NCBI RefSeq assembly: GCF_044324875.1
Contig: NZ_CP172185.1
Length of the DNA stretch: 64,000 bases
Reading direction: 5' to 3' (one strand)
DNA from: Escherichia coli
GTDB taxonomy: Bacteria > Pseudomonadota > Gammaproteobacteria > Enterobacterales > Enterobacteriaceae
How positions within the stretch are numbered: position 1 is the stretch's first letter; each line of letters begins with the position of its first letter. The notes under the pieces were generated by a model that did not search any database, was not told the origin of the DNA, and was given only the letters and a program-made list of their open reading frames with translations. The position numbers and the translations under genes are program-made. Shown here piece after piece: positions 4,006 to 28,477 of this stretch.

Positions 4006-4022
4006 CTGCACAACAGCGCTGT

Positions 4023-5085: not shown

Positions 5086-5153
5086 GGTCAGAATGTCCTC
5101 TGTGAGATTTATGAATGTTGGGCAAATGCGGGTGAATCTGCTGAGCTGAGCTT

Positions 5154-5756: not shown

Positions 5757-6082
5757 CGCGTCCTGCCCGTGGATGCGCTGACGTGTTATGGCTTGCGTAT
5801 GGGGTTGATGGAATAAGTGAAAAACCGCGGCAGAACGGGAAGATCAGGTAACCGACAAGGGACAGAACACCGGATGCAGGTTCAGAATGAATGATCTCCG
5901 TTGACTTCGGTTCACATCATTAAGCAGGACAGTAAGGTTTTACCGACGGAGTGTTTCCAGGAGCGAAAGCAGAGAAAAATACCGTTGCATGACTTCAGGA
6001 CGACTTTTTCAGAAAACGAGCTAAGGGCGTCAGCCAACGTCCTGTAGCATAAGCTCAGGCACCGGATGTCGTTTTACAGGGC

Positions 6083-6814: not shown

Positions 6815-6849
6815 GATGAGAGATCTCCGTTGATTTGGATTGACTTCAC

Positions 6850-8390: not shown

Positions 8391-8397
8391 TTTCACA

Positions 8398-9621
8398 TCA
8401 TAAACACCATTTAAAACCATCATCCTGAACATCATACAACAATATATTTTTACTAAAGCATGAATTGTATATTTCTATTAATTCAGGAAAATTATCAGGA
8501 TTCACCTTTAAATTCAACTGAATGTTACACTTAATTTCACTCAGCAGTTCTTCATGCGTGGATTTTATTATCCCTTTATCATAATCTATAAATACACACA
8601 TGTTTTTCATGAATTCAAACCCTTTTCCTGTATACAGTTTGATGAATGCCACAAGAGCAAACATTTCAAGATGCAGCCATAATGCCACGTGAGTTTTTCG
8701 CAAAGTATAAAAAATTGAATTCGCCACTTTTTTACTTATTGCTCTTTTGTACTGTGAGTGCGCCAGATTCAGTAGTGGCAATTCTCTCTCGATAAATGAA
8801 AGTGAAAAAGGCGGGTAAATTGATGTCGGAAATATTTCAGGTCTTATGATATTTTCGATTTCCACCATAAATCTATCCATAGAACGAAAATCATTTTCTT
8901 TTTTTATTCTGGTATAGAGACCGCCTTTATTCCTTACTGCGACTTTTTTTCGTGCTATCCCCCCCAACATTTCCTCTAATTGTTTATTTATCTTCGTATC
9001 ATTAAATACAACCATTCTTCTTATCATCCTGGGAAGGATGATAATATCAGAGCTTGAATCACTTGAACGGCAATTATTATTGATCCATGCAACTTCAAGT
9101 TGAAGTATCGGAACATTAAATTCTCTGGGGTTAATAACTCTCTGATATTGTTTTTTGTATGCGTTTTCATTAAGATATTCTCTGCTGTAGAGAAACTTAT
9201 AGCAATATAATCTGACAATATCCTTTATGTAAGATTTAAATGAGTCACCTGTAACAGATATATTTTTTCTTCTCAGTAACTCCTGTGTATTGAGCCATTC
9301 CCGTGACCGGAGTACTCCATTATGAAGACTTTTTCTTACTTGCTTTGAATTGCGCAATTGATGTAATATTTTTGCGTCCTCAACAATTCTCTTTCCCGTT
9401 TGATTTCTTGCAGCATCTATTACTCTGTCAAATATCTCCCGGTCCAGACTTTTGTCATATTTACTGATTATACGACAAATATTCCTGACCCGACGGTTCT
9501 CTTTATTTCGTTTCCATAACTGATAATGATCATCACATAACCTCAGGGCATTTGCCTCATCAAATTCTGAAACAGGATTGCTGCATTTTTTATTCCGACA
9601 GATACCTTTGTTTTTAGCCAT
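8398..9621 (-). CDS. Hypothetical protein, 407 aa, low-GC orphan
   Basis: Long ATG-initiated ORF with purine-rich SD; Lys/Arg/Asn-rich; N-terminal Cys-x4-Cys ... Cys-x2-His; no family recognised. Confidence 0.6.
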   Translation of the reverse strand: MAKNKGICRNKKCSNPVSEFDEANALRLCDDHYQLWKRNKENRRVRNICRIISKYDKSLDREIFDRVIDAARNQTGKRIVEDAKILHQLRNSKQVRKSLHNGVLRSREWLNTQELLRRKNISVTGDSFKSYIKDIVRLYCYKFLYSREYLNENAYKKQYQRVINPREFNVPILQLEVAWINNNCRSSDSSSDIIILPRMIRRMVVFNDTKINKQLEEMLGGIARKKVAVRNKGGLYTRIKKENDFRSMDRFMVEIENIIRPEIFPTSIYPPFSLSFIERELPLLNLAHSQYKRAISKKVANSIFYTLRKTHVALWLHLEMFALVAFIKLYTGKGFEFMKNMCVFIDYDKGIIKSTHEELLSEIKCNIQLNLKVNPDNFPELIEIYNSCFSKNILLYDVQDDGFKWCL

Positions 9622-9721
9622 ACTCTTCTTCCCGTCAATGGAAAAATTTTCACGTCCATATTACCTGACTGAGAGGCCGGATTAATGTGATCCGGTTCAG
9701 TGAAATCAACAGGATAACGGT

Positions 9722-10606
9722 ATGTCATTCAGCCATTCTTCCCTCTCCGCACACGTAAAGTCACATCTGACCTTTCTTCCTGAAGAAATTCGCCAGAAAA
9801 TCCTTGAACATCTTCGCAGCGTCATTCAGTACGAACCCGTTATTGGCATTATGGGTAAATCCGGTGCCGGAAAAAGCAGCCTGTGCAATGCCATTTTTCA
9901 GTCCCGTGTCTGCGCCACGCATCCGCTGAACGGCTGCACCCGTCAGGCTCATCGTCTTACCTTTCAGCCCGGTGAACGAAGAATGACGCTGGTCGATCTG
10001 CCCGGCACTGGCGAAACACCACAGCATGATCAGGAATACCGGGCACTTTACAGTCAGTTACTGCCCGAACTGGATCTGATTATCTGGATCCTGCGGGCTG
10101 ATGAACGTGCGTATGCTGCCGACATCGCCATGCATCAGTTTTTACTGAATGAAGGTGCCGATCCCTCGCGTTTTCTGTTTGTTCTCAGCCATGCCGATCG
10201 CATCCACCCGGCTGAAGAATGGAACAACCAGAGCAGCACGCCATCCCGTCAGCAGGAACTCTCACTGGCGACGGTGACAGCCCGGGTGGCAACCCTGTTC
10301 CCTTCATCATTTCCGGTACTCCCCATAGCCGCTCCTGCCGGCTGGAATCTTCCGGCATTTGTGTCTCTGATGATCCACGCCCTGCCACCACAGGCAACCA
10401 GCGCGGTTTATTCGCATATCCGGAATGAAAAGCGCACTGCGCAGGATCAGCAACACGCACAGCAGGCTTTTGGTGACGCCATCGGCCAGAGTTTTGACGC
10501 TGCCATTGCCCGGTTCAGCTTTCCGGCCTGGATGCTGCAGCTTCTGCGCAAAGCCCGTGATCGCATTATCCGCCTGCTGATCACACTGTGGGATCGCCTG
10601 TTCTGA
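9722..10606 (+). CDS. YeeP/YfjP-family GTPase (50S ribosome-binding GTPase-like)
   Basis: 294 aa; P-loop GIMGKSGAGKSS and DLPGTGE switch motif. Confidence 0.85.
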   Translation: MSFSHSSLSAHVKSHLTFLPEEIRQKILEHLRSVIQYEPVIGIMGKSGAGKSSLCNAIFQSRVCATHPLNGCTRQAHRLTFQPGERRMTLVDLPGTGETPQHDQEYRALYSQLLPELDLIIWILRADERAYAADIAMHQFLLNEGADPSRFLFVLSHADRIHPAEEWNNQSSTPSRQQELSLATVTARVATLFPSSFPVLPIAAPAGWNLPAFVSLMIHALPPQATSAVYSHIRNEKRTAQDQQHAQQAFGDAIGQSFDAAIARFSFPAWMLQLLRKARDRIIRLLITLWDRLF

Positions 10607-10791
10607 ATGTCCCCGCTTTTTGACCGGCCCCGGCGATAACCAGGAAACGCATTTCCGGTTGCGTCACCACAATGCTGAAGGGCTTCGGTAAACCCTCATT
10701 CATTTCATCCATCAGGCCGCGTCTTCTCCGTGAGACGCGGCTTTTTCATTGATTACGTCATTCAGTCTTAACCACTGATAAGGAGCAAAGT

Positions 10792-11610
10792 ATGCGATTA
10801 GCCAGTCGTTTTGGTTATGCGAACCAGATACGCCGTGACCGTCCGCTGACCCGTGAAGAGCTGATGCACCATGTGCCCGGGATTTTCGGGGAAGATAAAC
10901 ACACCTCCCGGAGCCGGAACTATACATACATCCCCACCATCACCGTGCTGGAAAGCCTGCAGCGGGAAGGCTTTCAGCCATTCTTCGCCTGCCAGACCCG
11001 CGTACGTGACCCGGGTCGCCGGGGGTATACCAAACACATGCTGCGTCTGCGCCGTGACGGGGAGATAAACGGACAACATGTCCCTGAAATTATTCTGCTC
11101 AACTCTCATGACGGTACCTCCAGCTACCAGATGCTGCCGGGTTACTTCAGGTTCGTCTGCCAGAACGGATGCGTCTGCGGTCAGTCTCGGGGGGAAGTGC
11201 GTGTTCCGCACCGGGGAAATGTGGTGGACAGAGTCATTGAAGGGGCTTACGAGGTGGTGGGCGTGTTTGACCGGATAGAGGAGAAGCGTGATGCCATGCA
11301 GTCGCTGGTCCTGCCGCCACCGGCACGCCAGGCGCTGGCACAGGCGGCACTGACTTACCGTTATGGTGACGAACATCAGCCCGTCACCACCGCCGACATT
11401 CTGACACCACGACGCCGGGAGGATTACGGTAAGGACCTGTGGAGTGCTTATCAGACCATCCAGGAGAATATGCTGAAAGGCGGGATTTCCGGTCGCAGTG
11501 CAAAAGGAAAACGTATCCATACCCGGGCCATTCACAGCATTGATACCGATATAAAACTCAACCGCGCATTGTGGGTGATGGCAGAAACGCTGCTGGAGAG
11601 CATGCGCTGA
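10792..11610 (+). CDS. DUF932-family protein (YfjQ/YafZ-like)
   Basis: 272 aa; position after the GTPase gene as in CP4-type islands. Confidence 0.7.
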   Translation: MRLASRFGYANQIRRDRPLTREELMHHVPGIFGEDKHTSRSRNYTYIPTITVLESLQREGFQPFFACQTRVRDPGRRGYTKHMLRLRRDGEINGQHVPEIILLNSHDGTSSYQMLPGYFRFVCQNGCVCGQSRGEVRVPHRGNVVDRVIEGAYEVVGVFDRIEEKRDAMQSLVLPPPARQALAQAALTYRYGDEHQPVTTADILTPRRREDYGKDLWSAYQTIQENMLKGGISGRSAKGKRIHTRAIHSIDTDIKLNRALWVMAETLLESMR

Positions 11611-11691
11611 TGCCGTTTCCCTGAGTGAGGGAATCATTCAGCTTTCGTTCCTGAAAAACACACATTTATTTGTTATTTAAGGCGTTATCTC

Positions 11692-12171
11692 ATGAAAACC
11701 GTTTCTCAGAATACCCCCACAATTTATTCAGCTACAACACCAGAGAATAATCCGCCTCAGTTGGTTGCCAGCCTCGTCCCTGATGAACAGCGCATCAGCT
11801 TCTGGCCGCAGCATTTTGGCCTCATTCCACAGTGGGTGACCCTGGAGCCCCGTGTCTTCGGCTGGATGGACCGTCTGTGCGAAGACTACTGCGGTGGTAT
11901 CTGGAATCTGTACACCCTGAACAACGGCGGGGCATTTATGGCCCCCGAACCGGATGATGATGATGACGAAACATGGGTACTGTTCAATGCCATGAACGGT
12001 AACCGCGCTGAAATGAGCCCGGAAGCCGCCGGCATTGCCGCCTGTCTGATGACGTACAGTCATCACGCCTGCCGTACGGAGTGTTATGCCATGACGGTTC
12101 ATTATTACCGTCTGCGGGATTACGCCCTGCAGCATCCGGAATGCAGCGCCATTATGCGCATCATTGACTGA
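11692..12171 (+). CDS. Antirestriction protein, KlcA/ArdB family (YfjX/YafX-like)
   Basis: 159 aa; acidic DDDDDE stretch, conserved island order. Confidence 0.75.
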   Translation: MKTVSQNTPTIYSATTPENNPPQLVASLVPDEQRISFWPQHFGLIPQWVTLEPRVFGWMDRLCEDYCGGIWNLYTLNNGGAFMAPEPDDDDDETWVLFNAMNGNRAEMSPEAAGIAACLMTYSHHACRTECYAMTVHYYRLRDYALQHPECSAIMRIID

Positions 12172-12186
12172 AAGGGGGCCGGAACA

Positions 12187-12663
12187 ATGCAACAGATTTC
12201 CTTTCTGCCCGGAGAAATGACAACCAGAGAGCGCAGCCTCATTCAGCGGGCCCTGAAAGCCCTGGACCGCCATCTTCATGAACCCGGCGTGGCCTTCACC
12301 TCCACGCATGCGGCACGGGAATGGCTGATTCTGAACATGGCGGGACTGGAGCGTGAAGAATTCCGGGTGCTGTATCTGAATAACCAGAATCAGCTGATTG
12401 CCGGTGAAACCCTCTTCACCGGCACCATCAACCGCACGGAAGTCCATCCCCGGGAAGTGATTAAACGCGCCCTGTACCACAATGCCGCTGCCGTGGTGCT
12501 GGCGCACAATCACCCGTCCGGTGAAGTCACACCCAGCAAGGCAGACCGCCTTATCACGGAACGTCTGGTACAGGCGCTGGCCCTGGTGGATATCCGGGTG
12601 CCGGACCATCTGATAGTCGGTGGCAGCCAGGTTTTCTCCTTTGCCGAACATGGTCTGCTTTAA
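12187..12663 (+). CDS. RadC-like JAB-domain protein (YeeS/YfjY-like)
   Basis: 158 aa; JAMM-like HNHPSGEVTPSKAD motif. Confidence 0.85.
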   Translation: MQQISFLPGEMTTRERSLIQRALKALDRHLHEPGVAFTSTHAAREWLILNMAGLEREEFRVLYLNNQNQLIAGETLFTGTINRTEVHPREVIKRALYHNAAAVVLAHNHPSGEVTPSKADRLITERLVQALALVDIRVPDHLIVGGSQVFSFAEHGLL

Positions 12664-12725
12664 CCCGTCACAACCACATCACACCTGTTTTCACTTTTAT
12701 CTTCTGTCTTCAGAGGTATCCCATT

Positions 12726-12947
12726 ATGAAAATCATCACCCGTGGTGAAGCCATGCGTATTCACCAACAGCATCCTGCATCCCGTCTTTTTCCGTTCTGT
12801 ACCGGCAAATACCGCTGGCACGGCAGCACTGAAACGTATACCGGTCGTGAAGTGCAGGATATTCCCGGTGTGCTGGCTGTGTTTGCAGAACGTCGTAAGG
12901 ACAGTTTTGGCCCGTATGTCCGGCTGATGAGCGTCACCCTGAACTGA
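12726..12947 (+). CDS. YeeT-family (DUF987) small protein
   Basis: 73 aa, MKIITRGEAMRIHQQHP...; position before the antitoxin gene. Confidence 0.75.
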   Translation: MKIITRGEAMRIHQQHPASRLFPFCTGKYRWHGSTETYTGREVQDIPGVLAVFAERRKDSFGPYVRLMSVTLN

Positions 12948-12961
12948 GTCAGGGCATTCTG

Positions 12962-13594
12962 ATGAGCAGAATTATCACCATCACAGTGTATACGCTGGAT
13001 GAACTTTCCTGCCCGGCACGGGAAAAAGCCCGCGACGGGTACCGTCAGCATCATGCTGACAGCAACTGGTATGAAAACGTGTATGAGGACGTCAGGGAGG
13101 TCTGTGGCATTTTCGGAATTGACCTCTGCCAGCGTGTTATCCGTCTCAGCAACGGCAGGTTTATGGAAGAGCCGTGCATCTGGTTCAGCGGATTCTGCAG
13201 CCAGGGACGGAGCCTGTTTTGAAGGACGCTGGCACTGGCAGTCAGCAACAACCAGGAGAGTCCGGGAGTATGCCCCGCAGAACCGTGAGCTTCATCGTAT
13301 CGCGGATGCCCTGCAGGCGGTGCAGAAACGTAACTTCTGGCAACTGCAGGCTGAAATCCACCACCGGGGACGTTACTGCCATCCGTTATCACTGTTACCC
13401 GGAACAGTCCGACTGGTCAGGCTATGACAGCCGATGCGGAAGCCGCTGTCAGCGAAGCCCTGCGCGACCTGGCCTTCTGGCTGTACCGTCAACTGGAAAA
13501 CGAGTACGACCAGATGACCTCAGACGCCGCTGTGGATGAGGCCATTCTCATCAATGCATACATCTTCACCGAAACCGGTCAGCGCACCGGCTGA
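12962..13594 (+). pseudogene. Apparently disrupted gene: protein-like segments in three reading-frame pieces (12962-13222, about 13200-13427, 13424-13594)
   Basis: All three segments translate to plausible protein sequence but are separated by frame changes; the last piece (57 aa) is below the ORF-track threshold. Confidence 0.35.
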
Positions 13595-13643
13595 CCTGTC
13601 ATCGTTAAACCATTCTTAACCACTTTTCAGAGAGGATTTTATC

Positions 13644-14012
13644 GTGTCAGACACACTCTCCGGGATAACTCATCCCGACGACAATCACGACCGCCCCTGG
13701 TGGGGGCTTCCCTGCACAGTGAGGCCCTGTTTTGGCGCCCGTCTGGTGCAGGAGGGTAACCGCCTGCATTACCTTGCCGACCGCGCCGGCATCAGAGGCC
13801 GGTTCAGCGATGCGGATGCATACCATCTGGACCAGGCCTTTCCGCTGCTGATGAAACAACTGGAACTCATGCTCACCAGCGGTGAACTGAATCCCCGCCA
13901 TCAGCATACCGTGACACTGTATGCGAAGGGGCTGACCTGCGAAGCCGACACCCTCGGCAGTTGTGGTTACGTTTATCTGGCTGTTTATCCGACGCCCGAA
14001 ACGAAAAAGTAA
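13644..14012 (+). CDS. Type IV antitoxin, CbeA/YeeU/YfjZ family
   Basis: 122 aa, near-identical to recalled YeeU (MSDTL.G.T.PDDNHDRPWWGLPCTV...TPETKK). Confidence 0.9.
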   Translation: MSDTLSGITHPDDNHDRPWWGLPCTVRPCFGARLVQEGNRLHYLADRAGIRGRFSDADAYHLDQAFPLLMKQLELMLTSGELNPRHQHTVTLYAKGLTCEADTLGSCGYVYLAVYPTPETKK

Positions 14013-14102
14013 ACCACCGGAATAACCTTCTGCTCCGGCCAGGTGTTTTCACCACGCCACTCTCCCCATAATTTAATCTCTCATATCAGGAAAATCTTCA
14101 GT

Positions 14103-14513
14103 ATGAAATTATTACCCGACACACATGTACGGGAGGCATCGTGCTGCCCGTCTCCCGTCACCATCTGGCAGACACTGCTCATCCGTCTGCTGGACCAGCA
14201 CTATGGCCTCACACTGAATGACACACCGTTCGCTGATGAACGTGTGATTGAGCAGCATATTGAGGCCGGCATTTCACTGTGCGATGCGGTGAACTTTCTC
14301 GTTGAAAAATACGCACTGGTACGTACCGACCAGCCGGGATTCAGCGCAGGAGCCCCGTCGCAGTTAATCAACAGCATCGATATTCTCCGGGCCCGCCGGG
14401 CAACAGGCCTGATGACACGTAATAACTACAGAATGGTAAATAACATTACCCTGGGTAGCATCCGGGGGCGAAACGATGAAACTTTCCCTGACGCTGGAAG
14501 CCGACAGCATTAA
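14103..14513 (+). CDS. Type IV toxin, CbtA/YeeV/YpjF family
   Basis: Start trimmed to MKLLPDT; [67 protein letters not shown] matches YeeV. Confidence 0.85.
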
Positions 14514-14898
14514 CGTGCAGGCACTGAACATGGGGCGCATTGTCGTTGACATTGATGGTGTAAATCTCGCTGAACTGATTAACAAGGTCGCTGAATACGG
14601 TTATTCACTCCGCGTGGTGGATGAACGTGACGCTACCGAAACACCGGCGACTTCTGCCAGCTCTCATCAGTTGCCGGAAGACAATACAGTGATACAGAGC
14701 GTGATGCCATTAACCACTGAAACAGCGCTGGATATCCTCATTGCGTGGCTGCAGGACAATATCGACTGCGGGTCCGGAATTATTTTCGACAACGATGAGG
14801 ATAAAACGGATTCGGCAGCACTGCTGCCCTGTATTGAACAGGCCAGGGAGGATATCCGTACCCTGCACCAACTGCAACTTCTGCACCAGAACCGGTGA
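14476..14898 (+). CDS. YeeW-like protein
   Basis: 140 aa; overlaps the 3' end of the toxin gene, as yeeW follows yeeV in CP4-44. Confidence 0.55.
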
Positions 14899-14982
14899 AT
14901 CTCACTCACCAGACTTCATTCTCCTGACGCCAGCCTGAACAGAGCTGGCGTTTTCGTTTATAAACAGAAAGGAAACCCCATA

Positions 14983-15768
14983 ATGTCATATATCACAATC
15001 CCCCACCCGAACGCGGTCAACGGACATACAGCCGTTATCTGTTCCACAAGTATCAGACACATCCTGGCTGTACGAAAGAGTACACTGCTGCAAATCGACA
15101 CGCTTATCCGGCAACTGACAGAAATCTCAGCACTGACGGAAAGTATTGGCGGTAAAGCCGCCCCGGACTGGGCCATGAAACAGGATTTTCGCTGTGGCTG
15201 CTGGCTGAAGGAGAAACAGGAAACCGCAATGAAAGCCATTACCCGGAATCTTGACCGCGAAATCTGGCGTAACCTGATGCAGCGTTCCGGGATGCTTTCC
15301 TTAATGGATGCACAGGCACGTGATACATGGTACAGGTCACTGGAATATGATAATTTTCCGGAAATCAGTGAAGCGAACATTCTGAGCACATTTGAACAAC
15401 TGCACCAGAATAAGGATGAAGTGTTTGAGCGGGGGGTGATCAACCTCTTCAAAGGGCTGAGCTGGGATTACAAAACCAACTCACCCTGTAAATTTGGCAG
15501 TAAAATTATCGTCAACAATCTGGTGAGGTGGGACCAGTGGGGATTTCATCTTATCAGTGGAATGCAGGCAGATCGCCTGGCTGACCTGGAAAGAATGTTG
15601 CATCTGCTCAGCGGTAAACCGATCCCCGACAACCGGGGAATATCACCATTAATCTGGATGACCACATACAGTCCGTTCAGGGTAAAGGACGCTATGAAGA
15701 TGAGATGTTCATCATTAAATACTTTAAGAAGGGAGCTGCACACATCACTTTCAAAAGGCTGGAGCTGA
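14983..15768 (+). CDS. Hypothetical protein, last gene of the island (possibly DUF4942-like)
   Basis: 261 aa ATG-initiated ORF; family assignment from memory is tentative. Confidence 0.5.
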   Translation: MSYITIPHPNAVNGHTAVICSTSIRHILAVRKSTLLQIDTLIRQLTEISALTESIGGKAAPDWAMKQDFRCGCWLKEKQETAMKAITRNLDREIWRNLMQRSGMLSLMDAQARDTWYRSLEYDNFPEISEANILSTFEQLHQNKDEVFERGVINLFKGLSWDYKTNSPCKFGSKIIVNNLVRWDQWGFHLISGMQADRLADLERMLHLLSGKPIPDNRGISPLIWMTTYSPFRVKDAMKMRCSSLNTLRRELHTSLSKGWS

Positions 15769-15935
15769 TTGACAGAATTAACGATATAATAGCCAGGCAC
15801 TTTCCTTCTGTGCTCTCAGCCTGACCCCGAGTTTGATTCCCTTTCGATATCAAAAGGGACTGCGGGTACAAAAGAGGGTACATCTTTCACCAAACCAAAC
15901 AAAATAAACCAATATCAACACGATAGAAGCATTCT

Positions 15936-15957
15936 TCGATTCCGAGTCCGGCACCAA
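15936..15957 (+). repeat. 3' fragment of tRNA-Phe (pheU attachment-site remnant)
   Basis: TTCGATTCCGAGTCCGGCACCA matches the pheU 3' end (one G fewer); upstream sequence does not match the rest of the tRNA. Confidence 0.7.
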
Positions 15958-16572: not shown

Positions 16573-18111
16573 ATGCAACAACCTGTAGTTCGCGTTGGCG
16601 AATGGCTTGTTACTCCGTCCATAAACCAAATTAGCCGCAATGGGCGTCAACTTACCCTTGAGCCGAGATTAATCGATCTTCTGGTTTTCTTTGCTCAACA
16701 CAGTGGCGAAGTACTTAGCAGGGATGAACTTATCGATAATGTCTGGAAGAGAAGTATTGTCACCAATCACGTTGTGACGCAGAGTATCTCAGAACTACGT
16801 AAGTCATTAAAAGATAATGATGAAGATAGTCCTGTCTATATCGCTACTGTACCAAAGCGCGGCTATAAATTAATGGTGCCGGTTATCTGGTACAGCGAAG
16901 AAGAGGGAGAGGAAATAATGCTATCTTCGCCTCCCCCTATACCAGAGGCGGTTCCTGACACAGATTCTCCCTCCCACAGTCTTAACATTCAAAACACCGC
17001 AACACCACCTGAACAATCCCCTGTTAAAAGCAAACGATTCACTACCTTTTGGGTATGGTTTTTTTTCCTGTTGTCGTTAGGTATCTGTGTAGCACTGGTA
17101 GCGTTTTCAAGTCTTGATACACGTCTTCCGATGAGCAAATCGCGTATTTTGCTCAATCCACGCGATATTGACATTAATATGGTAAATAAAAGTTGTAACA
17201 GCTGGAGTTCCCCGTATCAGCTCTCTTACGCGATAGGCGTGGGTGATTTGGTGGCGACATCACTTAACACCTTCTCCACCTTTATGGTGCATGACAAAAT
17301 CAACTACAACATTGATGAACCGAGCAGTTCCGGTAAAACATTATCTATTGCGTTTGTTAATCAGCGCCAATACCGTGCTCAACAATGCTTTATGTCGGTA
17401 AAATTGGTAGACAATGCAGATGGTTCAACCATGCTGGATAAACGTTATGTCATCACTAACGGTAATCAGCTGGCGATTCAAAATGATTTACTCCAGAGTT
17501 TATCAAAAGCGTTAAACCAACCGTGGCCACAACGAATGCAGGAGATGCTCCAGCAAATTTTGCCTCATCGTGGTGCGTTATTAACTAATTTTTATCAGGC
17601 TCATGATTATTTACTGCATGGCGATGATAAATCATTGAACCGTGCCAGTGAATTACTAGGTGAGATTGTTCAATCATCCCCCGAATTTACCTACGCGAGA
17701 GCAGAAAAAGCATTAGTTGATATCGTGCGCCATTCTCAACATCCTTTGGATGAAAAACAATTAGCAGCACTGAACACAGAAATAAATAACATTGTTACAC
17801 TACCGGAATTGAATAACCTGTCCATTATATATCAAATAAAAGCGGTCAGTGCTCTGGTAAAAGGTAAAACAGATGAGTCTTACCAGGCGATAAATACTGG
17901 CATTGATCTTGAAATGTCCTGGCTAAATTATGTGTTGCTTGGCAAGGTTTATGAAATGAAGGGGATGAACCGGGAAGCAGCTGATGCATATCTCACCGCC
18001 TTTAATTTACGCCCAGGGGCAAACACCCTTTACTGGATTGAAAATGGTATATTCCAGACTTCTGTTCCTTATGTTGTACCTTATCTCGACAAATTTCTCG
18101 CTTCAGAATAA
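16573..18111 (+). CDS. cadC: CadC, membrane-bound ToxR-like activator of cadBA
   Basis: 512 aa, matches E. coli CadC. Confidence 0.95.
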   Translation: MQQPVVRVGEWLVTPSINQISRNGRQLTLEPRLIDLLVFFAQHSGEVLSRDELIDNVWKRSIVTNHVVTQSISELRKSLKDNDEDSPVYIATVPKRGYKLMVPVIWYSEEEGEEIMLSSPPPIPEAVPDTDSPSHSLNIQNTATPPEQSPVKSKRFTTFWVWFFFLLSLGICVALVAFSSLDTRLPMSKSRILLNPRDIDINMVNKSCNSWSSPYQLSYAIGVGDLVATSLNTFSTFMVHDKINYNIDEPSSSGKTLSIAFVNQRQYRAQQCFMSVKLVDNADGSTMLDKRYVITNGNQLAIQNDLLQSLSKALNQPWPQRMQEMLQQILPHRGALLTNFYQAHDYLLHGDDKSLNRASELLGEIVQSSPEFTYARAEKALVDIVRHSQHPLDEKQLAALNTEINNIVTLPELNNLSIIYQIKAVSALVKGKTDESYQAINTGIDLEMSWLNYVLLGKVYEMKGMNREAADAYLTAFNLRPGANTLYWIENGIFQTSVPYVVPYLDKFLASE

Positions 18112-18476
18112 GTAACTCCCGGGTTGATTTATGCTCGGGAATATTTGTTGTTGAGTTTTTGTATGTTCCTGTTGGTATAATATGTTGCGGCAATTTATTT
18201 GCCGCATAATTTTTATCACATAAATTTAACCAGGAAATATCCCGCAATCCATTGTAAACATTGAATGTTTATCTTTTCATGATATCAACTTGCGATCCTG
18301 ATGTGTTAATAAAAAACCTCAAGTTCTCACTTACAGAAACTTTTGTGTTATTTCACCTAATCTTTAGGATTAATCCTTTTTTCGTGAGTATTCTTAGCGC
18401 CAGTTTGGTCTGGTCAGGAAATAGTTATACATCATGACCCGGACTCCAAATTCAAAAATGAAATTAGGAGAAGAGC
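18112..18476 (+). promoter_or_regulatory. cadBA promoter region (Pcad, CadC-binding region)
   Basis: Intergenic cadC-cadB; assigned from known locus organisation, individual sites not resolved. Confidence 0.45.
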
Positions 18477-19811
18477 ATGAGTTCTGCCAAGAAGATCGGG
18501 CTATTTGCCTGTACCGGTGTTGTTGCCGGTAATATGATGGGGAGCGGTATTGCATTATTACCTGCGAACCTAGCAAGTATCGGTGGTATTGCTATCTGGG
18601 GTTGGATTATCTCTATTATTGGTGCAATGTCGCTGGCGTATGTATATGCCCGACTGGCAACAAAAAACCCGCAACAAGGTGGCCCAATTGCTTATGCCGG
18701 AGAAATTTCCCCTGCATTTGGTTTTCAGACAGGTGTTCTTTATTACCATGCTAACTGGATTGGTAACCTGGCGATTGGTATTACCGCTGTATCTTATCTT
18801 TCCACCTTCTTCCCAGTATTAAATGATCCTGTTCCGGCGGGTATCGCCTGTATTGCTATCGTCTGGGTATTTACCTTTGTAAATATGCTCGGCGGTACCT
18901 GGGTAAGCCGTTTAACCACTATTGGTCTGGTGCTGGTTCTTATTCCTGTGGTAATGACTGCTATTGTTGGCTGGCATTGGTTTGATGCTGCGACTTATGC
19001 TGCTAACTGGAATACTGCGGATACCACCGATGGTCATGCGATCATTAAAAGTATTCTGCTCTGCCTGTGGGCCTTCGTGGGTGTTGAATCCGCAGCTGTA
19101 AGTACTGGTATGGTTAAAAACCCGAAACGTACCGTTCCGCTGGCAACCATGCTGGGTACTGGTTTAGCAGGTATTGTTTATATCGCTGCGACTCAGGTGC
19201 TTTCCGGTATGTATCCGTCTTCTGTAATGGCAGCTTCCGGTGCTCCGTTTGCAATCAGTGCTTCAACTATCCTCGGTAATTGGGCTGCGCCGCTGGTTTC
19301 TGCATTCACCGCCTTTGCGTGCCTGACCTCTCTGGGCTCCTGGATGATGTTGGTAGGCCAGGCAGGTGTACGTGCCGCTAACGACGGTAACTTCCCGAAA
19401 GTTTATGGTGAAGTCGACAGCAACGGTATTCCGAAAAAAGGTCTGCTGCTGGCTGCAGTGAAAATGACTGCCCTGATGATCCTCATCACTCTGATGAACT
19501 CTGCCGGTGGTAAAGCATCTGACCTGTTCGGTGAACTGACCGGTATCGCAGTACTGCTGACTATGCTGCCGTACTTCTACTCTTGCGTTGACCTGATTCG
19601 TTTTGAAGGCGTTAACATCCGCAACTTTGTCAGCCTGATCTGCTCTGTACTGGGTTGCGTGTTCTGCTTCATCGCGCTGATGGGCGCAAGCTCCTTCGAG
19701 CTGGCAGGTACCTTCATCGTCAGCCTGATTATCCTGATGTTCTACGCTCGCAAAATGCACGAGCGCCAGAGCCACTCAATGGATAACCACACAGCGTCTA
19801 ACGCACATTAA
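18477..19811 (+). CDS. cadB: Lysine:cadaverine antiporter
   Basis: 444 aa APC-family transporter matching CadB. Confidence 0.95.
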   Translation: MSSAKKIGLFACTGVVAGNMMGSGIALLPANLASIGGIAIWGWIISIIGAMSLAYVYARLATKNPQQGGPIAYAGEISPAFGFQTGVLYYHANWIGNLAIGITAVSYLSTFFPVLNDPVPAGIACIAIVWVFTFVNMLGGTWVSRLTTIGLVLVLIPVVMTAIVGWHWFDAATYAANWNTADTTDGHAIIKSILLCLWAFVGVESAAVSTGMVKNPKRTVPLATMLGTGLAGIVYIAATQVLSGMYPSSVMAASGAPFAISASTILGNWAAPLVSAFTAFACLTSLGSWMMLVGQAGVRAANDGNFPKVYGEVDSNGIPKKGLLLAAVKMTALMILITLMNSAGGKASDLFGELTGIAVLLTMLPYFYSCVDLIRFEGVNIRNFVSLICSVLGCVFCFIALMGASSFELAGTFIVSLIILMFYARKMHERQSHSMDNHTASNAH

Positions 19812-19890
19812 TTAAAAGTATTTTCCGAGGCTCCTCCTTTCATTTTGTCCCATGTGTTGGGAGGGGCCTTTTTTACCTGGAGATATGACT

Positions 19891-22038
19891 ATGAACGTTA
19901 TTGCAATATTGAATCACATGGGGGTTTATTTTAAAGAAGAACCCATCCGTGAACTTCATCGCGCGCTTGAACGTCTGAACTTCCAGATTGTTTACCCGAA
20001 CGACCGTGACGACTTATTAAAACTGATCGAAAACAATGCGCGTCTGTGCGGCGTTATTTTTGACTGGGATAAATATAATCTCGAGCTGTGCGAAGAAATT
20101 AGCAAAATGAACGAGAACCTGCCGTTGTACGCGTTCGCTAATACGTATTCCACTCTCGATGTAAGCCTGAATGACCTGCGTTTACAGATTAGCTTCTTTG
20201 AGTATGCGCTGGGTGCTGCTGAAGATATTGCTAATAAGATCAAGCAGACCACTGACGAATATATCAACACTATTCTGCCTCCGCTGACTAAAGCACTGTT
20301 TAAATATGTTCGTGAAGGTAAATATACTTTCTGTACTCCTGGTCACATGGGCGGTACTGCATTCCAGAAAAGCCCGGTAGGTAGCCTGTTCTATGATTTC
20401 TTTGGTCCGAACACCATGAAATCTGATATTTCCATTTCAGTATCTGAACTGGGTTCTCTGCTGGATCACAGTGGTCCACACAAAGAAGCAGAACAGTATA
20501 TCGCTCGCGTCTTTAACGCAGACCGCAGCTACATGGTGACCAACGGTACTTCCACTGCGAACAAAATTGTTGGTATGTACTCTGCTCCGGCAGGCAGCAC
20601 CATTCTGATTGACCGTAACTGCCACAAATCGCTGACCCACCTGATGATGATGAGCGATGTTACGCCAATCTATTTCCGCCCGACCCGTAACGCTTACGGT
20701 ATTCTTGGTGGTATCCCACAGAGTGAATTCCAGCACGCTACCATTGCTAAGCGTGTGAAAGAAACACCAAACGCAACCTGGCCGGTACATGCCGTAATTA
20801 CTAACTCTACCTATGATGGTCTGCTGTACAACACCGACTTCATCAAGAAAACACTGGATGTGAAATCCATCCACTTTGACTCCGCGTGGGTGCCTTACAC
20901 CAACTTCTCACCGATTTACGAAGGTAAATGCGGTATGAGCGGTGGCCGTGTAGAAGGGAAAGTGATTTACGAAACCCAGTCCACTCACAAACTGCTGGCG
21001 GCGTTCTCTCAGGCTTCCATGATCCACGTTAAAGGTGACGTAAACGAAGAAACCTTTAACGAAGCCTACATGATGCACACCACCACTTCTCCGCACTACG
21101 GTATCGTGGCGTCCACTGAAACCGCTGCGGCGATGATGAAAGGTAATGCTGGTAAGCGTCTGATCAACGGTTCCATTGAACGTGCGATCAAATTCCGTAA
21201 AGAGATCAAACGCCTGAGAACGGAATCTGATGGCTGGTTCTTTGATGTATGGCAGCCGGATCATATCGATACGACTGAATGCTGGCCGCTGCGTTCTGAC
21301 AGCACCTGGCACGGCTTCAAAAACATCGATAACGAGCACATGTATCTTGACCCGATCAAAGTCACCCTGCTGACTCCGGGGATGGAAAAAGACGGCACCA
21401 TGAGCGACTTTGGTATTCCGGCCAGCATCGTGGCGAAATACCTCGACGAACATGGCATCGTTGTTGAGAAAACCGGTCCGTATAACCTGCTGTTCCTGTT
21501 CAGCATCGGTATCGATAAGACCAAAGCACTGAGCCTGCTGCGTGCTCTGACAGACTTCAAACGTGCGTTCGATCTGAACCTGCGTGTGAAAAACATGCTG
21601 CCGTCTCTGTATCGTGAAGATCCTGAATTCTATGAAAACATGCGTATTCAGGAACTGGCTCAGAATATCCACAAACTGATTGTTCACCACAATCTGCCGG
21701 ATCTGATGTATCGCGCATTTGAAGTTCTGCCGACCATGGTAATGACTCCGTATGCTGCGTTCCAGAAAGAGCTGCACGGTATGACCGAAGAAGTTTACCT
21801 CGACGAAATGGTAGGTCGTATTAACGCCAATATGATCCTTCCGTATCCGCCGGGAGTTCCTCTGGTAATGCCGGGTGAAATGATCACCGAAGAAAGCCGT
21901 CCGGTTCTGGAGTTCCTGCAGATGCTGTGTGAAATCGGCGCTCACTATCCGGGCTTTGAAACCGATATTCACGGTGCATACCGTCAGGCTGATGGCCGCT
22001 ATACCGTTAAGGTATTGAAAGAAGAAAGCAAAAAATAA
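19891..22038 (+). CDS. cadA: Inducible lysine decarboxylase
   Basis: Start trimmed to MNVIAILNHMGVYF; 715 aa. Confidence 0.95.
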   Translation: MNVIAILNHMGVYFKEEPIRELHRALERLNFQIVYPNDRDDLLKLIENNARLCGVIFDWDKYNLELCEEISKMNENLPLYAFANTYSTLDVSLNDLRLQISFFEYALGAAEDIANKIKQTTDEYINTILPPLTKALFKYVREGKYTFCTPGHMGGTAFQKSPVGSLFYDFFGPNTMKSDISISVSELGSLLDHSGPHKEAEQYIARVFNADRSYMVTNGTSTANKIVGMYSAPAGSTILIDRNCHKSLTHLMMMSDVTPIYFRPTRNAYGILGGIPQSEFQHATIAKRVKETPNATWPVHAVITNSTYDGLLYNTDFIKKTLDVKSIHFDSAWVPYTNFSPIYEGKCGMSGGRVEGKVIYETQSTHKLLAAFSQASMIHVKGDVNEETFNEAYMMHTTTSPHYGIVASTETAAAMMKGNAGKRLINGSIERAIKFRKEIKRLRTESDGWFFDVWQPDHIDTTECWPLRSDSTWHGFKNIDNEHMYLDPIKVTLLTPGMEKDGTMSDFGIPASIVAKYLDEHGIVVEKTGPYNLLFLFSIGIDKTKALSLLRALTDFKRAFDLNLRVKNMLPSLYREDPEFYENMRIQELAQNIHKLIVHHNLPDLMYRAFEVLPTMVMTPYAAFQKELHGMTEEVYLDEMVGRINANMILPYPPGVPLVMPGEMITEESRPVLEFLQMLCEIGAHYPGFETDIHGAYRQADGRYTVKVLKEESKK

Positions 22039-22051
22039 TTAGCTCGTACAA

Positions 22052-22079
22052 GGGAAGTGGCTTGCCACTTCCCTTTTTT
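22052..22079 (+). terminator. Rho-independent terminator after cadA
   Basis: GGGAAGTGGC..GCCACTTCCC stem followed by TTTTTT. Confidence 0.6.
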
Positions 22080-22096
22080 GCTCATAAGGAGAACAC

Positions 22097-23554
22097 ATGA
22101 AAACACCCTCACAGCCGCGCGCGATATACTATATCGTGGCGATCCAAATCTGGGAGTACTTCAGTTTTTACGGCATGCGTGCCTTACTCATTCTCTATCT
22201 CACCCATCAGCTTGGTTTTGATGATAACCATGCCATCAGCCTGTTCAGCGCATATGCATCTCTGGTTTACGTTACCCCTATTCTCGGCGGCTGGCTTGCC
22301 GACCGCCTGCTCGGCAACCGCACTGCAGTGATTGCCGGCGCGCTGTTAATGACCCTTGGCCATGTGGTGCTGGGCATTGATACAAATTCAACTTTTAGCC
22401 TGTATCTGGCGCTGGCAATCATTATTTGTGGCTACGGTTTATTCAAATCAAACATCAGCTGTTTGCTTGGCGAGCTCTACGACGAGAACGATCATCGACG
22501 TGATGGCGGTTTTTCGCTGCTGTATGCTGCGGGCAATATCGGTTCTATCGCAGCCCCAATCGCCTGCGGCCTGGCTGCTCAGTGGTATGGATGGCATGTT
22601 GGCTTTGCCCTTGCGGGTGGCGGCATGTTTATCGGTTTGTTGATTTTCTTAAGCGGTCATCGTCATTTCCAGTCCACGCGTAGTATGGATAAAAAAGCTC
22701 TAACAAGCGTTAAATTTGCCTTACCAGTATGGAGCTGGTTAGTGGTGATGCTCTGTTTAGCCCCTGTATTTTTTACCCTGCTGCTGGAGAACGACTGGTC
22801 AGGATATTTGCTGGCGATCGTTTGCCTCATTGCCGCACAAATCATTGCCCGCATGATGATCAAATTCCCCGAACACCGCCGTGCTCTTTGGCAAATTGTA
22901 TTGTTGATGTTTGTCGGGACATTGTTCTGGGTACTGGCACAACAGGGCGGCAGTACCATCAGCCTGTTTATCGATCGATTTGTGAATCGTCAGGCATTCA
23001 ATATTGAAGTACCTACTGCACTATTCCAGTCGGTGAACGCAATTGCGGTGATGCTCGCTGGGGTTGTACTTGCCTGGCTGGCATCGCCAGAAAGCCACGG
23101 TAACTCAACATTGCGCGTCTGGCTGAAGTTTGCCTTTGGTTTACTGCTGATGGCTTGTGGCTTTATGTTGCTGGCATTTGATGCCCGACATGCAGCGGCT
23201 GACGGTCAAGCGTCAATGGGCGTGATGATATCCGGGCTGGCGCTAATGGGCTTTGCCGAACTCTTTATTGACCCGGTGGCGATTGCGCAAATCACGCGTC
23301 TGAAAATGTCTGGCGTATTAACCGGTATTTATATGCTGGCAACAGGCGCGGTCGCCAACTGGCTGGCAGGCGTCGTGGCACAGCAGACGACAGAGTCGCA
23401 AATTAGCGGTATGGCAATTGCCGCTTACCAGCGATTCTTTTCTCAAATGGGAGAGTGGACGTTGGCTTGTGTCGCGATCATCGTGGTATTGGCCTTTGCT
23501 GCCCGTTTTCTGTTTAGCACGCCGACAAATATGATACAGGAGAGCAACGATTAA
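22097..23554 (+). CDS. dtpC: Dipeptide/tripeptide:H+ symporter DtpC (YjdL)
   Basis: 485 aa POT-family transporter. Confidence 0.9.
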
Positions 23555-23790
23555 CTGTCGTAAAAACAATTGGTTATGAATAAATTAACTTTCAGTTTAT
23601 CACACTAGCAAATCGAGATTAATAAGTCATTTAAACCATTTTTATGGTTATTTATTAGTGATATCAACTTGAGGTAAGCGTTAGTTTCGATAAGATAAAC
23701 TGAGTTATTAATAGTCGAGGCAGATAATACAGTGTACCGATCTGTCTCTTTATCTACGCTAAATTGAAAGCTGGATTTAGAGGAACCAAA

Positions 23791-25308
23791 ATGTCTGAAC
23801 GAGAAACACGGGGAGCCAATGAGGCTATTGATTTTAACGATGAACTGAGAAATCGCCGCGAAAAACTGGCGGCACTACGTCAGCAAGGTGTGGCGTTTCC
23901 CAATGATTTTCGCCGCGACCATACCTCTGACAAGTTGCACGAAGAGTTTGATGCGAAGGATAACCAGGAACTGGAATCCTTAAACATTGAAGTCTCGGTT
24001 GCTGGCCGAATGATGACCCGTCGTATCATGGGGAAAGCCTCCTTTGTAACGTTGCAGGATGTCGGTGGCCGTATTCAACTGTACGTTGCAAGAGATAGCC
24101 TGCCAGAAGGTGTTTATAACGATCAGTTTAAAAAATGGGATCTGGGTGACATTATCGGTGCCCGCGGTACGCTGTTTAAGACGCAAACCGGTGAGCTTTC
24201 CATTCACTGTACTGAGCTGCGCCTGCTGACTAAAGCACTACGTCCTTTACCAGATAAATTCCATGGTCTGCAGGATCAGGAAGTCCGTTATCGTCAACGT
24301 TATCTGGACCTCATCGCTAACGATAAATCCCGTCAAACGTTTGTTGTCCGTTCAAAAATTCTGGCCGCTATCCGTCAGTTCATGGTCGCGCGCGGCTTTA
24401 TGGAAGTAGAAACCCCGATGATGCAGGTAATTCCAGGTGGGGCATCTGCTCGCCCGTTTATTACCCATCATAACGCTCTGGATTTAGATATGTACCTGCG
24501 TATCGCGCCGGAGCTGTATCTGAAACGTCTGGTTGTAGGCGGTTTTGAACGGGTATTCGAAATCAACCGTAACTTCCGTAATGAAGGTATTTCTGTTCGC
24601 CATAATCCTGAGTTCACAATGATGGAACTCTACATGGCGTATGCGGATTACCACGATTTGATTGAACTGACGGAGTCCCTGTTCCGCACCCTGGCACAAG
24701 AGGTTCTTGGTACCACTAAAGTCACTTATGGCGAGCATGTGTTTGATTTCGGCAAACCGTTTGAAAAACTCACCATGCGCGAAGCAATCAAAAAATATCG
24801 TCCAGAAACCGATATGGCCGACCTGGATAATTTTGATGCTGCTAAAGCATTAGCTGAATCTATCGGAATTACGGTAGAGAAAAGCTGGGGTCTGGGACGT
24901 ATTGTTACGGAGATCTTTGATGAAGTGGCAGAAGCACATCTGATTCAGCCAACCTTTATTACGGAATATCCGGCAGAAGTGTCCCCGCTGGCGCGCCGTA
25001 ATGATGTTAACCCGGAAATCACCGACCGTTTTGAATTCTTCATCGGTGGTCGTGAAATCGGTAATGGTTTTAGCGAATTAAACGACGCAGAAGATCAGGC
25101 TGAACGTTTCCAGGAACAGGTTAACGCTAAAGCTGCAGGTGACGACGAAGCCATGTTCTATGACGAAGATTACGTGACTGCGCTGGAATATGGTCTGCCG
25201 CCAACCGCTGGTCTGGGTATTGGTATCGACCGAATGATTATGCTGTTTACAAACAGTCATACTATTCGCGACGTTATTCTCTTCCCGGCGATGCGCCCAC
25301 AGAAATAA
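23791..25308 (+). CDS. lysU: Lysyl-tRNA synthetase, inducible (LysU)
   Basis: Start trimmed from TTG to [11 protein letters not shown]; 505 aa class II aaRS; lysU rather than lysS by locus context. Confidence 0.9.
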
Positions 25309-25426
25309 ATTTCACTTAAATGAACGAAGCAGTCAGGCGACTGCTTCGTTCGTCGTTCCGCAAATCCAGTTATGAGGAGAGACGCTTCGTTTCAAGATAA
25401 CCAGCGGGTCCACTCAACTACAGCTC

Positions 25427-25600
25427 CTAAAAGAGAGAAAAAAGTAATGCCACAGGCAGACTCATTGGCCAGGTTATTCCGACCAGGAATGCACTAAGTA
25501 AACGAATATGTGTTTTCTCATGTGAGATAAACCAGATAATGACAAAGGATATGTTCACACCAATCACATAAAAAATTAATATTTTAGAGAATAGTGCCAT
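25427..25600 (-). CDS. ghoT: GhoT membrane-lytic toxin (57 aa); not in ORF track
   Basis: Manual translation MALFSKILIFYVIGVNISFVIIWFISHEKTHIRLLSAFLVGITWPMSLPVALLFSLF; downstream of ghoS. Confidence 0.8.
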   Translation of the reverse strand: MALFSKILIFYVIGVNISFVIIWFISHEKTHIRLLSAFLVGITWPMSLPVALLFSLF

Positions 25601-25627
25601 TTTTTATGTTCTTCTTATCCTTCCTGG

Positions 25628-25924
25628 CTACTTGTAAAACTGACGGAAATAGTCATCAACGGTCATAATGTTGAGGTCAAAATCAATATCCGGTAAGTCT
25701 AAGCATTTGAGCCTGATTAAATCTTCGATTTCACTTGCGGCTAATGATGTCGTTATTGCGAAGGAATTTTCATTCAATTGTCGTGGTATCCCATATTCAT
25801 CAGCCACGATAGAGGAGAAATTCATATCATACATCAATGATCTTAACCTTAAGAACACTGAGGAATAAGATGATGGATAATCAAAAGAAACAACATAAGT
25901 ATTGAACTTGTTTTTACCTTCCAT
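25628..25924 (-). CDS. ghoS: GhoS antitoxin (YjdK)
   Basis: 98 aa MEGKNKFNTYVVSFDYPSSY... Confidence 0.85.
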   Translation of the reverse strand: MEGKNKFNTYVVSFDYPSSYSSVFLRLRSLMYDMNFSSIVADEYGIPRQLNENSFAITTSLAASEIEDLIRLKCLDLPDIDFDLNIMTVDDYFRQFYK

Positions 25925-26151
25925 AATATGACTCCTATCAATTTTAAACGCTCTGGGGACGCAAAACTTATTAACCCCAATCGATGATTCTCATATAGGA
26001 GATATTCTTTTTTTTTGCTCAGTAAAGGGGATGACTTGGGACAAAAAAACGCTCTCTCTGCCCATTCTTTGTGCATCCCCCTACCCTTCAGATGCTCTCC
26101 TGCATCACACCGCGGAGAGCATGAAAAATATCGTGACTCTGTACTCTCCCA

Positions 26152-26424
26152 TCAACTGCGAATATCATCATACTCCCGCGTTTTATCAAATTCGTGTTTC
26201 GCAAATGGGCATAGTGGGATAATTTTTCGTTTTTCCCGACGCATTTTTTCCACGACTTTCGCAACCAGCTGTTTACCAATCCCCTGCCCTTTCAGGCTTT
26301 CATCGACATCGGTATGTTCGATAATCGCTAAATTCTCTCCGGTCGGCACAAAGACAATTTCAGCGATTTGCTTGCCTTGTTCGTCATTAATGTAAAATTT
26401 ATTGTGGCCTTCGCGTATTTCCAT
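26152..26424 (-). CDS. yjdJ: YjdJ, small GNAT-like protein
   Basis: 90 aa. Confidence 0.8.
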
Positions 26425-26435
26425 TTTACCCTCGC

Positions 26436-26666
26436 TTATTTATGACGGTATTTCAGCGCGCCGCTCGGGCACGTATCAATCACTTTAACCACAGTGGTGA
26501 CGTCAACTTCATCCGGCATGATCCACGGCTTTCGTTTGAGATTAAATAACTTGCCGTTGCCACGTACGCAATTGCCAGAATGCTGACATATCGCAGTGTT
26601 GAACCAGACATCGATCTTTTCGCCGGTATAGCAGCGATAACCACCGTCCAGTAGATCCTGATCCAT
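26436..26666 (-). CDS. yjdI: YjdI, small Cys-rich protein
   Basis: ORF 26436..26723; start trimmed to internal Met ([16 protein letters not shown]); the longer start is possible. Confidence 0.7.
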
Positions 26667-26845
26667 GACCTTCCCCCTCTCATCAGTATGGTTTTCGCAA
26701 TAAGCATAGCCCGGAATCTTCATACCGCACCGGCAGTTTCAGTTTCCTGAGCCTCTTCCCCTATATAGCCAATCATTCTTACTCCCTTTGAATTACCCGC
26801 CTCATCAGAGATAATGCTTAAGAAATTTGTCACACAAGGAAGCTG

Positions 26846-28477
26846 ATGAGACATTCATTGCCCTACCGCATGTTACGCAAACGTCCGATGAAATTGAGTA
26901 CCACAGTGATCTTAATGGTCAGCGCGGTACTGTTCTCGGTGCTATTGGTGGTGCATCTGATTTACTTCTCGCAAATCAGTGATATGACGCGAGACGGGCT
27001 AGCCAACAAGGCACTGGCGGTGGCGCGTACCCTCGCCGACTCGCCGGAAATCCGTCAGGGCTTGCAGAAAAAACCGCAGGAGAGCGGCATCCAGGCCATC
27101 GCGGAAGCCGTGCGCAAACGCAACGATCTGCTGTTTATTGTCGTTACCGATATGCAAAGTCTTCGCTACTCGCATCCTGAAGCCCAGCGTATTGGTCAGC
27201 CATTTAAAGGTGATGACATCCTTAAAGCGCTGAATGGCGAAGAAAATGTCGCTATCAATCGCGGTTTTCTGGCGCAGGCTTTACGCGTATTTACCCCCAT
27301 CTACGATGAAAATCATAAACAAATTGGCGTGGTGGCGATCGGCCTTGAGTTAAGTCGCGTGACCCAACAGATCAATGACAGTCGCTGGAGCATTATCTGG
27401 TCGGTATTATTTGGCATGCTGGTCGGACTGATCGGCACCTGCATTCTGGTTAAAGTACTGAAAAAAATTCTTTTTGGCCTGGAACCCTACGAAATCTCCA
27501 CGCTGTTTGAGCAACGCCAGGCCATGTTGCAGTCTATCAAAGAAGGCGTCGTTGCCGTGGACGATCGCGGCGAAGTCACGCTGATCAACGATGCCGCACA
27601 AGAATTGCTGAATTACCGTAAGTCGCAGGACGATGAGAAACTGTCGACGCTAAGCCACTCGTGGTCACAGGTAGTAGATGTCTCGGAAGTGTTACGCGAC
27701 GGTACCCCGCGCCGCGACGAAGAGATTACGATTAAAGACCGGCTATTACTGATCAACACCGTTCCGGTGCGCAGTAATGGCGTTATCATCGGTGCCATTT
27801 CAACCTTCAGAGACAAAACTGAAGTACGTAAACTGATGCAGCGACTCGACGGTCTGGTCAACTATGCTGACGCACTTCGTGAACGATCCCACGAATTTAT
27901 GAATAAATTGCACGTGATTCTCGGATTATTGCATCTGAAGAGTTATAAGCAGTTGGAAGATTACATTCTCAAAACAGCCAATAACTATCAGGAAGAGATT
28001 GGCTCTCTGCTGGGTAAGATCAAATCTCCGGTTATAGCTGGTTTTTTAATCAGCAAGATTAACCGCGCGACCGATTTAGGCCATACGCTGATTTTAAACA
28101 GTGAAAGCCAGCTGCCAGACAGCGGCAGTGAAGACCAGGTCGCGACGCTGATTACCACGTTGGGAAATCTGATAGAAAACGCGCTGGAAGCATTAGGGCC
28201 GGAACCCGGAGGCGAAATTAGCGTAACATTGCACTACCGTCACGGCTGGCTGCACTGTGAAGTTAATGATGATGGACCGGGGATCGCACCCGATAAAATC
28301 GATCACATTTTTGACAAAGGTGTCTCGACAAAAGGAAGCGAGCGAGGCGTCGGTTTAGCACTTGTCAAACAACAGGTAGAAAATCTCGGCGGCAGCATCG
28401 CCGTGGAATCGGAACCCGGGATTTTCACACAATTTTTTGTCCAGATACCCTGGGACGGGGAGAGGTCGAACAGATGA
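26846..28477 (+). CDS. dcuS: C4-dicarboxylate sensor histidine kinase
   Basis: 543 aa. Confidence 0.95.
   Translation: MRHSLPYRMLRKRPMKLSTTVILMVSAVLFSVLLVVHLIYFSQISDMTRDGLANKALAVARTLADSPEIRQGLQKKPQESGIQAIAEAVRKRNDLLFIVVTDMQSLRYSHPEAQRIGQPFKGDDILKALNGEENVAINRGFLAQALRVFTPIYDENHKQIGVVAIGLELSRVTQQINDSRWSIIWSVLFGMLVGLIGTCILVKVLKKILFGLEPYEISTLFEQRQAMLQSIKEGVVAVDDRGEVTLINDAAQELLNYRKSQDDEKLSTLSHSWSQVVDVSEVLRDGTPRRDEEITIKDRLLLINTVPVRSNGVIIGAISTFRDKTEVRKLMQRLDGLVNYADALRERSHEFMNKLHVILGLLHLKSYKQLEDYILKTANNYQEEIGSLLGKIKSPVIAGFLISKINRATDLGHTLILNSESQLPDSGSEDQVATLITTLGNLIENALEALGPEPGGEISVTLHYRHGWLHCEVNDDGPGIAPDKIDHIFDKGVSTKGSERGVGLALVKQQVENLGGSIAVESEPGIFTQFFVQIPWDGERSNR

Follow-up and report, generated by a model that had tools for sequence, protein, structure and literature searches.

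The ghoS–ghoT locus

On the minus strand of the 64,000-nucleotide stretch of Escherichia coli DNA that was analysed (the window), positions 25427..25600 form an uninterrupted frame of 57 codons and a stop, which starts with ATG, ends with TAG and is translated as MALFSKILIFYVIGVNISFVIIWFISHEKTHIRLLSAFLVGITWPMSLPVALLFSLF. The frame lies in the gene order lysU (+), ghoT ghoS yjdJ yjdI (-), dcuS dcuR (+), which is the same in K-12 and in strain WP4-S17-ESBL-08. The genes and spacers around it are as follows.

25427..25600, minus strand: ghoT coding sequence, 57 aa and TAG; GhoT/OrtT family, a small and hydrophobic toxin of the inner membrane
25601..25627, minus strand: ghoS–ghoT spacer, 27 nt, CCAGGAAGGATAAGAAGAACATAAAAA, identical to K-12
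25628..25924, minus strand: ghoS coding sequence, 98 aa and stop; Cas2-like endoribonuclease antitoxin, type V
25925..26151, minus strand: yjdJ–ghoS intergenic region, 227 nt, including a run of nine A

The product of the frame is identical to GhoT of E. coli K-12 MG1655 (YjdO, b4559) at 57 of 57 residues, and the DNA at 174 of 174 nucleotides, so that the search for frame-disrupting differences from the annotated gene, by which the initial annotation had proposed to check its reading, returned none. On the Pfam family PF10753 (Toxin_GhoT_OrtT), for which the curated cut-off is 22.1 bits, the product scores 90.4 (E 8.9e-26), and the alignment places residues 4-57 on positions 1-55 of the 55-position profile, that is, over its full length. 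In profile searches, neither protein of the pair was matched by a model of NCBIfam or PADLOC; because those libraries hold no HMMs for the two proteins, their silence is not counter-evidence. A PDB sequence search with GhoT found nothing, even at E values up to 1, and there is no solved GhoT structure.

The 98-aa frame that begins upstream of ghoT on the same strand, across a spacer of only 27 nt, encodes a GhoS identical to that of K-12 (b4128) at 98 of 98 residues. It matches PF11080 (Endoribonuclease GhoS) with 138.8 bits (E 6e-41) and PDB entry 2LLZ with an E value of 8e-62, K-12 GhoS being the protein of that solved structure. Residue R28, reported as the key catalytic residue of GhoS (PMC4010927), is retained in the alignment to K-12. 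The K-12 locus thus has the same GhoT protein, ghoT DNA, GhoS protein, 27-nt spacer and flanking genes as the window, and the two differ only outside ghoT, by four synonymous nucleotide differences in ghoS, four substitutions in the ghoT–lysU spacer and the length of a homopolymer upstream of ghoS (~26007..26015), which has nine A in the window and eight in K-12.

The 57-aa peptide is strongly hydrophobic (GRAVY 1.5): two hydrophobic segments, at about residues 3-26 and 34-57, flank the polar loop HEKTHIR, and 19-residue hydropathy windows reach peaks of 2.6 (residues 7-25) and 1.8 (residues 38-57). Judged from hydropathy, GhoT is therefore predicted to have two membrane-spanning segments, in agreement with the published prediction for the family (PMC4344625). 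Phe38 and its partner Ile21 are both retained in the alignment to K-12, and the substitution F38R abolishes GhoT toxicity (PMC4344625).

The frame at 25427..25600 is almost certainly chromosomal ghoT, the toxin half of the E. coli ghoS–ghoT type V toxin–antitoxin operon, and nothing argues against its identification as ghoT. The initial annotation, which had described a 57-aa GhoT on the minus strand immediately downstream of ghoS, is borne out on both points, and its description of the product as a membrane protein agrees with the family match and the two hydrophobic segments, from which a membrane location is predicted. The gene is already known and is a routine entry in RefSeq/PGAP and in the K-12 reference annotation. 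In K-12 it has long been annotated as b4559, with experimental characterisation since 2012.

Signals for expression

The signals that may govern translation and termination of the two genes are listed below, with the ghoS Shine–Dalgarno sequence taken from the anti-Shine–Dalgarno scan.

25610..25615, minus strand: weak Shine–Dalgarno-like AAGAAG in the ghoS–ghoT spacer
25618..25625, minus strand: better Shine–Dalgarno-like AGGAAGGA, at least 17 nt from the ghoT ATG and too distant
25932..25937, minus strand: strong ghoS Shine–Dalgarno sequence TAGGAG
25322..25351, unstranded: hairpin with a perfect 13-bp stem and a 4-nt loop, GAACGAAGCAGUC GCCU GACUGCUUCGUUC

The best duplex that the 3′ end of 16S rRNA can form within 20 nt of the ghoT start has a pairing energy of only -3.1 kcal/mol, as compared with -6.8 for ghoS, -8.0 for yjdJ and -9.5 kcal/mol for pmrR, a small gene elsewhere in the window. 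A ribosome-binding site of this weakness may help to hold the basal translation of GhoT low.

The 227-nt yjdJ–ghoS region is the presumed site of the ghoST promoter. Over 25200..26900, the promoter-consensus scan called five sites where 4.4 were expected, a number not above chance, and no convincing promoter was placed; the single promoter-like site on the minus strand, at 26189..26161, falls within the 3′ end of yjdJ and is at chance level as well. The terminator-consensus scan of the same interval called no site where 1.6 were expected, and thus none between ghoS and ghoT; the outcome of neither scan is informative.

The hairpin at 25322..25351 was not called by the terminator scan because its U-tract is weak. 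It stands half-way along the 118 nt that separate the convergent stops of ghoT (25427) and lysU (25308). The minimum-energy fold and the centroid fold both contain it, and it dominates the predicted ensemble. This structure probably serves as a shared bidirectional terminator for the ghoT and lysU transcripts, as the folding predictions and its position suggest.

Reported type V control of GhoT

The mode of action of the pair is known from published work on the K-12 genes, whose products are identical to those of the window. GhoS acts there as an endoribonuclease with ghoT mRNA as its specific target (PMC4010927, PMC12282077, with Wang et al. 2012, Nat Chem Biol 8:855, as the source given in both), and an antitoxin that acts on the message of the toxin, not on the protein, is the defining trait of type V systems (PMC4010927; PMC12282077). 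GhoT damages the membrane and lowers ATP, and its overproduction yields lysed "ghost" cells (PMC4344625, PMC4010927). A further toxin, MqsR, which is an RNase that cuts at GCU, degrades ghoS mRNA and enriches ghoT mRNA, the latter because ghoT is free of GCU (PMC4344625, PMC10305079, PMC10643148).

By analogy with the K-12 work, this control in the present strain would start with co-transcription of ghoS and ghoT, after which GhoS would cleave the transcript within its ghoT portion and so keep the amount of toxin small. When MqsR is active, ghoS mRNA would be preferentially degraded and ghoT mRNA enriched. GhoT would then enter the inner membrane and dissipate the proton motive force and ATP, which would slow growth or, on overproduction, would lead to lysis and the formation of "ghosts."

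The distribution of GCU at the locus follows the published pattern: the triplet is absent from ghoT and from the 27-nt spacer and occurs three times in ghoS (nt 121, 213 and 221). This count of none against three is consistent with the MqsR model and is not proof of it, because GCU is also absent from about 9% of shuffled ghoT sequences of the same composition.

Conservation and the role of GhoT

An 801-bp region containing the locus was matched in 5341 of 5426 complete E. coli genomes, and the RefSeq label "type V toxin-antitoxin system toxin GhoT" is attached to the gene among the matches listed. The GhoT accession WP_001173343.1 occurs in the best-matching genome and in five E. coli genomes sampled at even steps down the similarity ranking, O157:H7 and ST131 included. 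When those five were compared with K-12 and the window (seven genomes, with the first 336 columns left out on account of a shift in poly-A length), ghoT had two variable sites, both synonymous, and one GhoT protein throughout, whereas ghoS had ten, of which eight were synonymous and two nonsynonymous, and three GhoS protein variants. Per 100 nt, the variability of ghoT was 1.15, as against 3.4-4.2 for its neighbours; this corresponds to about two variable sites in 174 nt where about six would be expected from the neighbour rates, a low variation that is not regarded as significant.

The remaining 85 of the 5426 genomes gave no match to the 801-bp region, and probably include cases of deletion. 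FDAARGOS_1250 (NZ_CP069571.1) keeps only 55 nt of a 561-bp ghoST query, and in this genome an IS1A element joins yjdJ directly to a truncated cadC (3538..5996, corresponding to window ~17500..26150). The deletion removes ghoS, ghoT, lysU, dtpC, cadA and cadB. Loss of the cad locus of this kind is known from Shigella and enteroinvasive strains.

The papers cited for the mechanism are mostly from one group, and toxicity has been shown largely by overproduction. The latter point bears on the reading that GhoT is a small, conserved protein of the inner membrane that does not normally act as a toxin, its toxicity being an artefact of overproduction and ghoST no true toxin–antitoxin module at native expression. 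Such a reading would draw on the invariance of the GhoT protein in seven of seven diverse E. coli genomes while GhoS varies, which is the pattern of a needed function, on the weak ribosome-binding site of ghoT, on the use of plasmid overexpression in the published toxicity assays (PMC4344625, PMC4010927), and on reviews that point to weaknesses of this sort in toxin–antitoxin work generally (PMC10643148, PMC10305079). However, some viable E. coli do without the gene, as the 85 genomes with no match and the one IS1-linked deletion indicate, and the low variation of ghoT is not statistically compelling. In an independent CRISPRi screen under gentamicin, moreover, knock-down of ghoS was far costlier than knock-down of ghoT (PMC12282077), a pattern that fits a harmful GhoT restrained by GhoS. 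A role for GhoT other than that of a toxin is accordingly considered unlikely, and the type V toxin remains the preferred assignment.

Both ghoT and ghoS have a G+C content of 35%, as compared with 50.5% for the window, and the dip spans about 25300..26050. This composition suggests that the low-G+C ghoST islet between lysU and yjdJ is an old horizontal acquisition. It is conceivable, if rather improbable, that GhoT is under stronger purifying selection than its antitoxin, either through a routine cellular role of the peptide or its mRNA (for example, in tuning of the membrane potential) or through constraint on the sequence as the specific RNA that GhoS cuts; in that case the islet would have been acquired and then domesticated, and would not be a selfish module.

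Relationship to OrtT and to other small membrane toxins

A paralogue of GhoT in E. coli is the orphan toxin OrtT (YdcX), which likewise has 57 aa, belongs to PF10753 and has two predicted membrane-spanning segments and the conserved F38 (PMC4344625), and for which membrane damage and ATP depletion have been reported as they have for GhoT (PMC4344625). The shared length and family would allow the frame to be read as ortT (ydcX), the gene of this paralogue, or as another GhoT/OrtT member. However, the product is 100% identical to K-12 GhoT and just 63.2% identical to sequences annotated as ortT, a value close to the published one (~63%; PMC4344625); ghoS lies directly upstream, in the lysU/yjdJ setting of ghoT; and the two GCU sites reported in ortT mRNA (PMC4344625) have no counterpart in the window frame. 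Unlike GhoT, OrtT also has no adjacent antitoxin, is not neutralised by GhoS, and is induced by a different stress (PMC4344625). Sequence identity to ghoT and synteny thus lead to rejection of the ortT identity, to which practically no weight can be given.

Homologues of GhoT/OrtT with 56-67% identity were also found on large plasmids in a search of a plasmid collection, in 78 Pantoea records as well as in Salmonella, Klebsiella and Proteus, and nearly all of these plasmids are non-mobilizable. The E. coli "plasmid" matches that are 100% identical to GhoT are records of 94 kb to 4.9 Mb, which look like chromosomal pieces filed as plasmids.

Short frames are common in the window, where ORFs of 20-59 aa number 707 and those of 50-59 aa make up 80 of this total, and the frame could in principle be a chance ORF or a decayed pseudogene in the AT-rich ghoS–lysU spacer. 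The weak Shine–Dalgarno match of ghoT would be in keeping with this, and the local G+C content of 35% favours stops over long stop-free runs, yet odd frames are possible at such a composition. Nevertheless, chance or decay is an extremely improbable origin for a frame that matches its family over the full length (E 9e-26), is identical to an experimentally studied K-12 gene, varies only synonymously across diverse genomes and is more hydrophobic than any other intergenic ORF of 50 aa or longer, and this explanation was rejected on the K-12 identity, the PF10753 match and the synonymous-only variation.

GhoT resembles the membrane peptides of type I systems (Hok, TisB, Ldr and Ibs) in its small size, its hydrophobicity and its inner-membrane location, in the control of its synthesis through the mRNA and in the membrane depolarisation that follows overproduction, but the type I antitoxin is an antisense RNA, whereas ghoST uses a protein RNase, whose gene precedes that of the toxin in the operon. 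A type I system is unsupported by the scans at this locus: an Rfam search gave no family match in or near 25300..26100, and hence no known antisense RNA, and plus-strand promoter-like sites inside ghoT were no commoner in the consensus scan than in shuffles.

Genomic surroundings

From about 15935 to 64000 the window is collinear with K-12 at 95.7-98.6% identity, and its identity to other E. coli chromosomes reaches 99.3% over 24 kb. The first ~15.9 kb (1..15956) is not collinear with K-12; collinearity ends inside the tRNA-Phe gene pheU, of which only an imperfect 22-nt copy of the 3′ end, one G short, lies at 15935..15956 (TTCGATTCCGAGTCCGGCACCA). ARAGORN called no tRNA in the window. The segment 1..15956 resembles the distal end of a genomic island with pheU as its integration site. 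Only 75 of 5426 E. coli genomes cover 80% or more of it in a single place, and the best matches listed are 97-98% identical. The annotation of the best match includes ascorbate-type PTS components IIA/IIB/IIC, a LacI regulator, ProQ/FinO, an inovirus Gp2-family protein and a GTPase, and also DUF932, an antirestriction protein, RadC and a YeeU/CbtA type IV toxin–antitoxin pair.

On the other side of the window, Rfam naRNA4 (nucleoid-associated ncRNA 4, a REP-type repeat) was matched twice, at 52129..52206 (+) and 54683..54763 (-). The first of these coincides with a break or overlap of the K-12 alignment at 52123..52205, and on the phn operon side (52123..64000) the identity to K-12 is 95.7%, down from 98.6%.

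Small genes below the length cut-off

The track of open reading frames supplied with the sequence had a default floor of 60 aa, which hides the 57-aa ghoT, and the list made with this floor is empty over 25309..25627, from lysU to ghoS. The earlier observation that genes of fewer than 60 aa are invisible in that track is thus correct. The accompanying statement that ghoT was found only by manual translation holds for the supplied track and does not hold for annotation in general, since RefSeq/PGAP and the K-12 reference call the gene routinely. A systematic small-ORF scan with scoring of ribosome-binding sites, which had been put forward as a means of detection, performs poorly in this case, because ghoT ranks low with its anti-Shine–Dalgarno pairing. 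The gene was instead singled out by the top GRAVY value among intergenic ORFs of at least 50 aa, together with an ATG start and the absence of overlap with a long ORF.

Another gene of this class is present in the window.

46307..46396, minus strand: pmrR, 29-aa small regulatory membrane protein, 100% identical to K-12 b4703 (tblastn)

The first-start ORF scan did not return pmrR at its annotated coordinates, and the gene was found by tblastn. It lies within an Rfam STnc630 match (46297..46462, 181 bits) beside basS. Among the K-12 small genes sought by tblastn, ecnA and ecnB are absent from the window, because the pheU island replaces that side.

The identification of ghoT brings no new biology, and its value is methodological. 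The gene serves as a positive control, which demonstrates that a 60-aa floor hides at least two real genes in the window, ghoT (57 aa) and pmrR (29 aa), and that Shine–Dalgarno scoring alone misses ghoT, whereas a search by profile or by homology reveals it, as do its hydrophobicity and its place in the operon.
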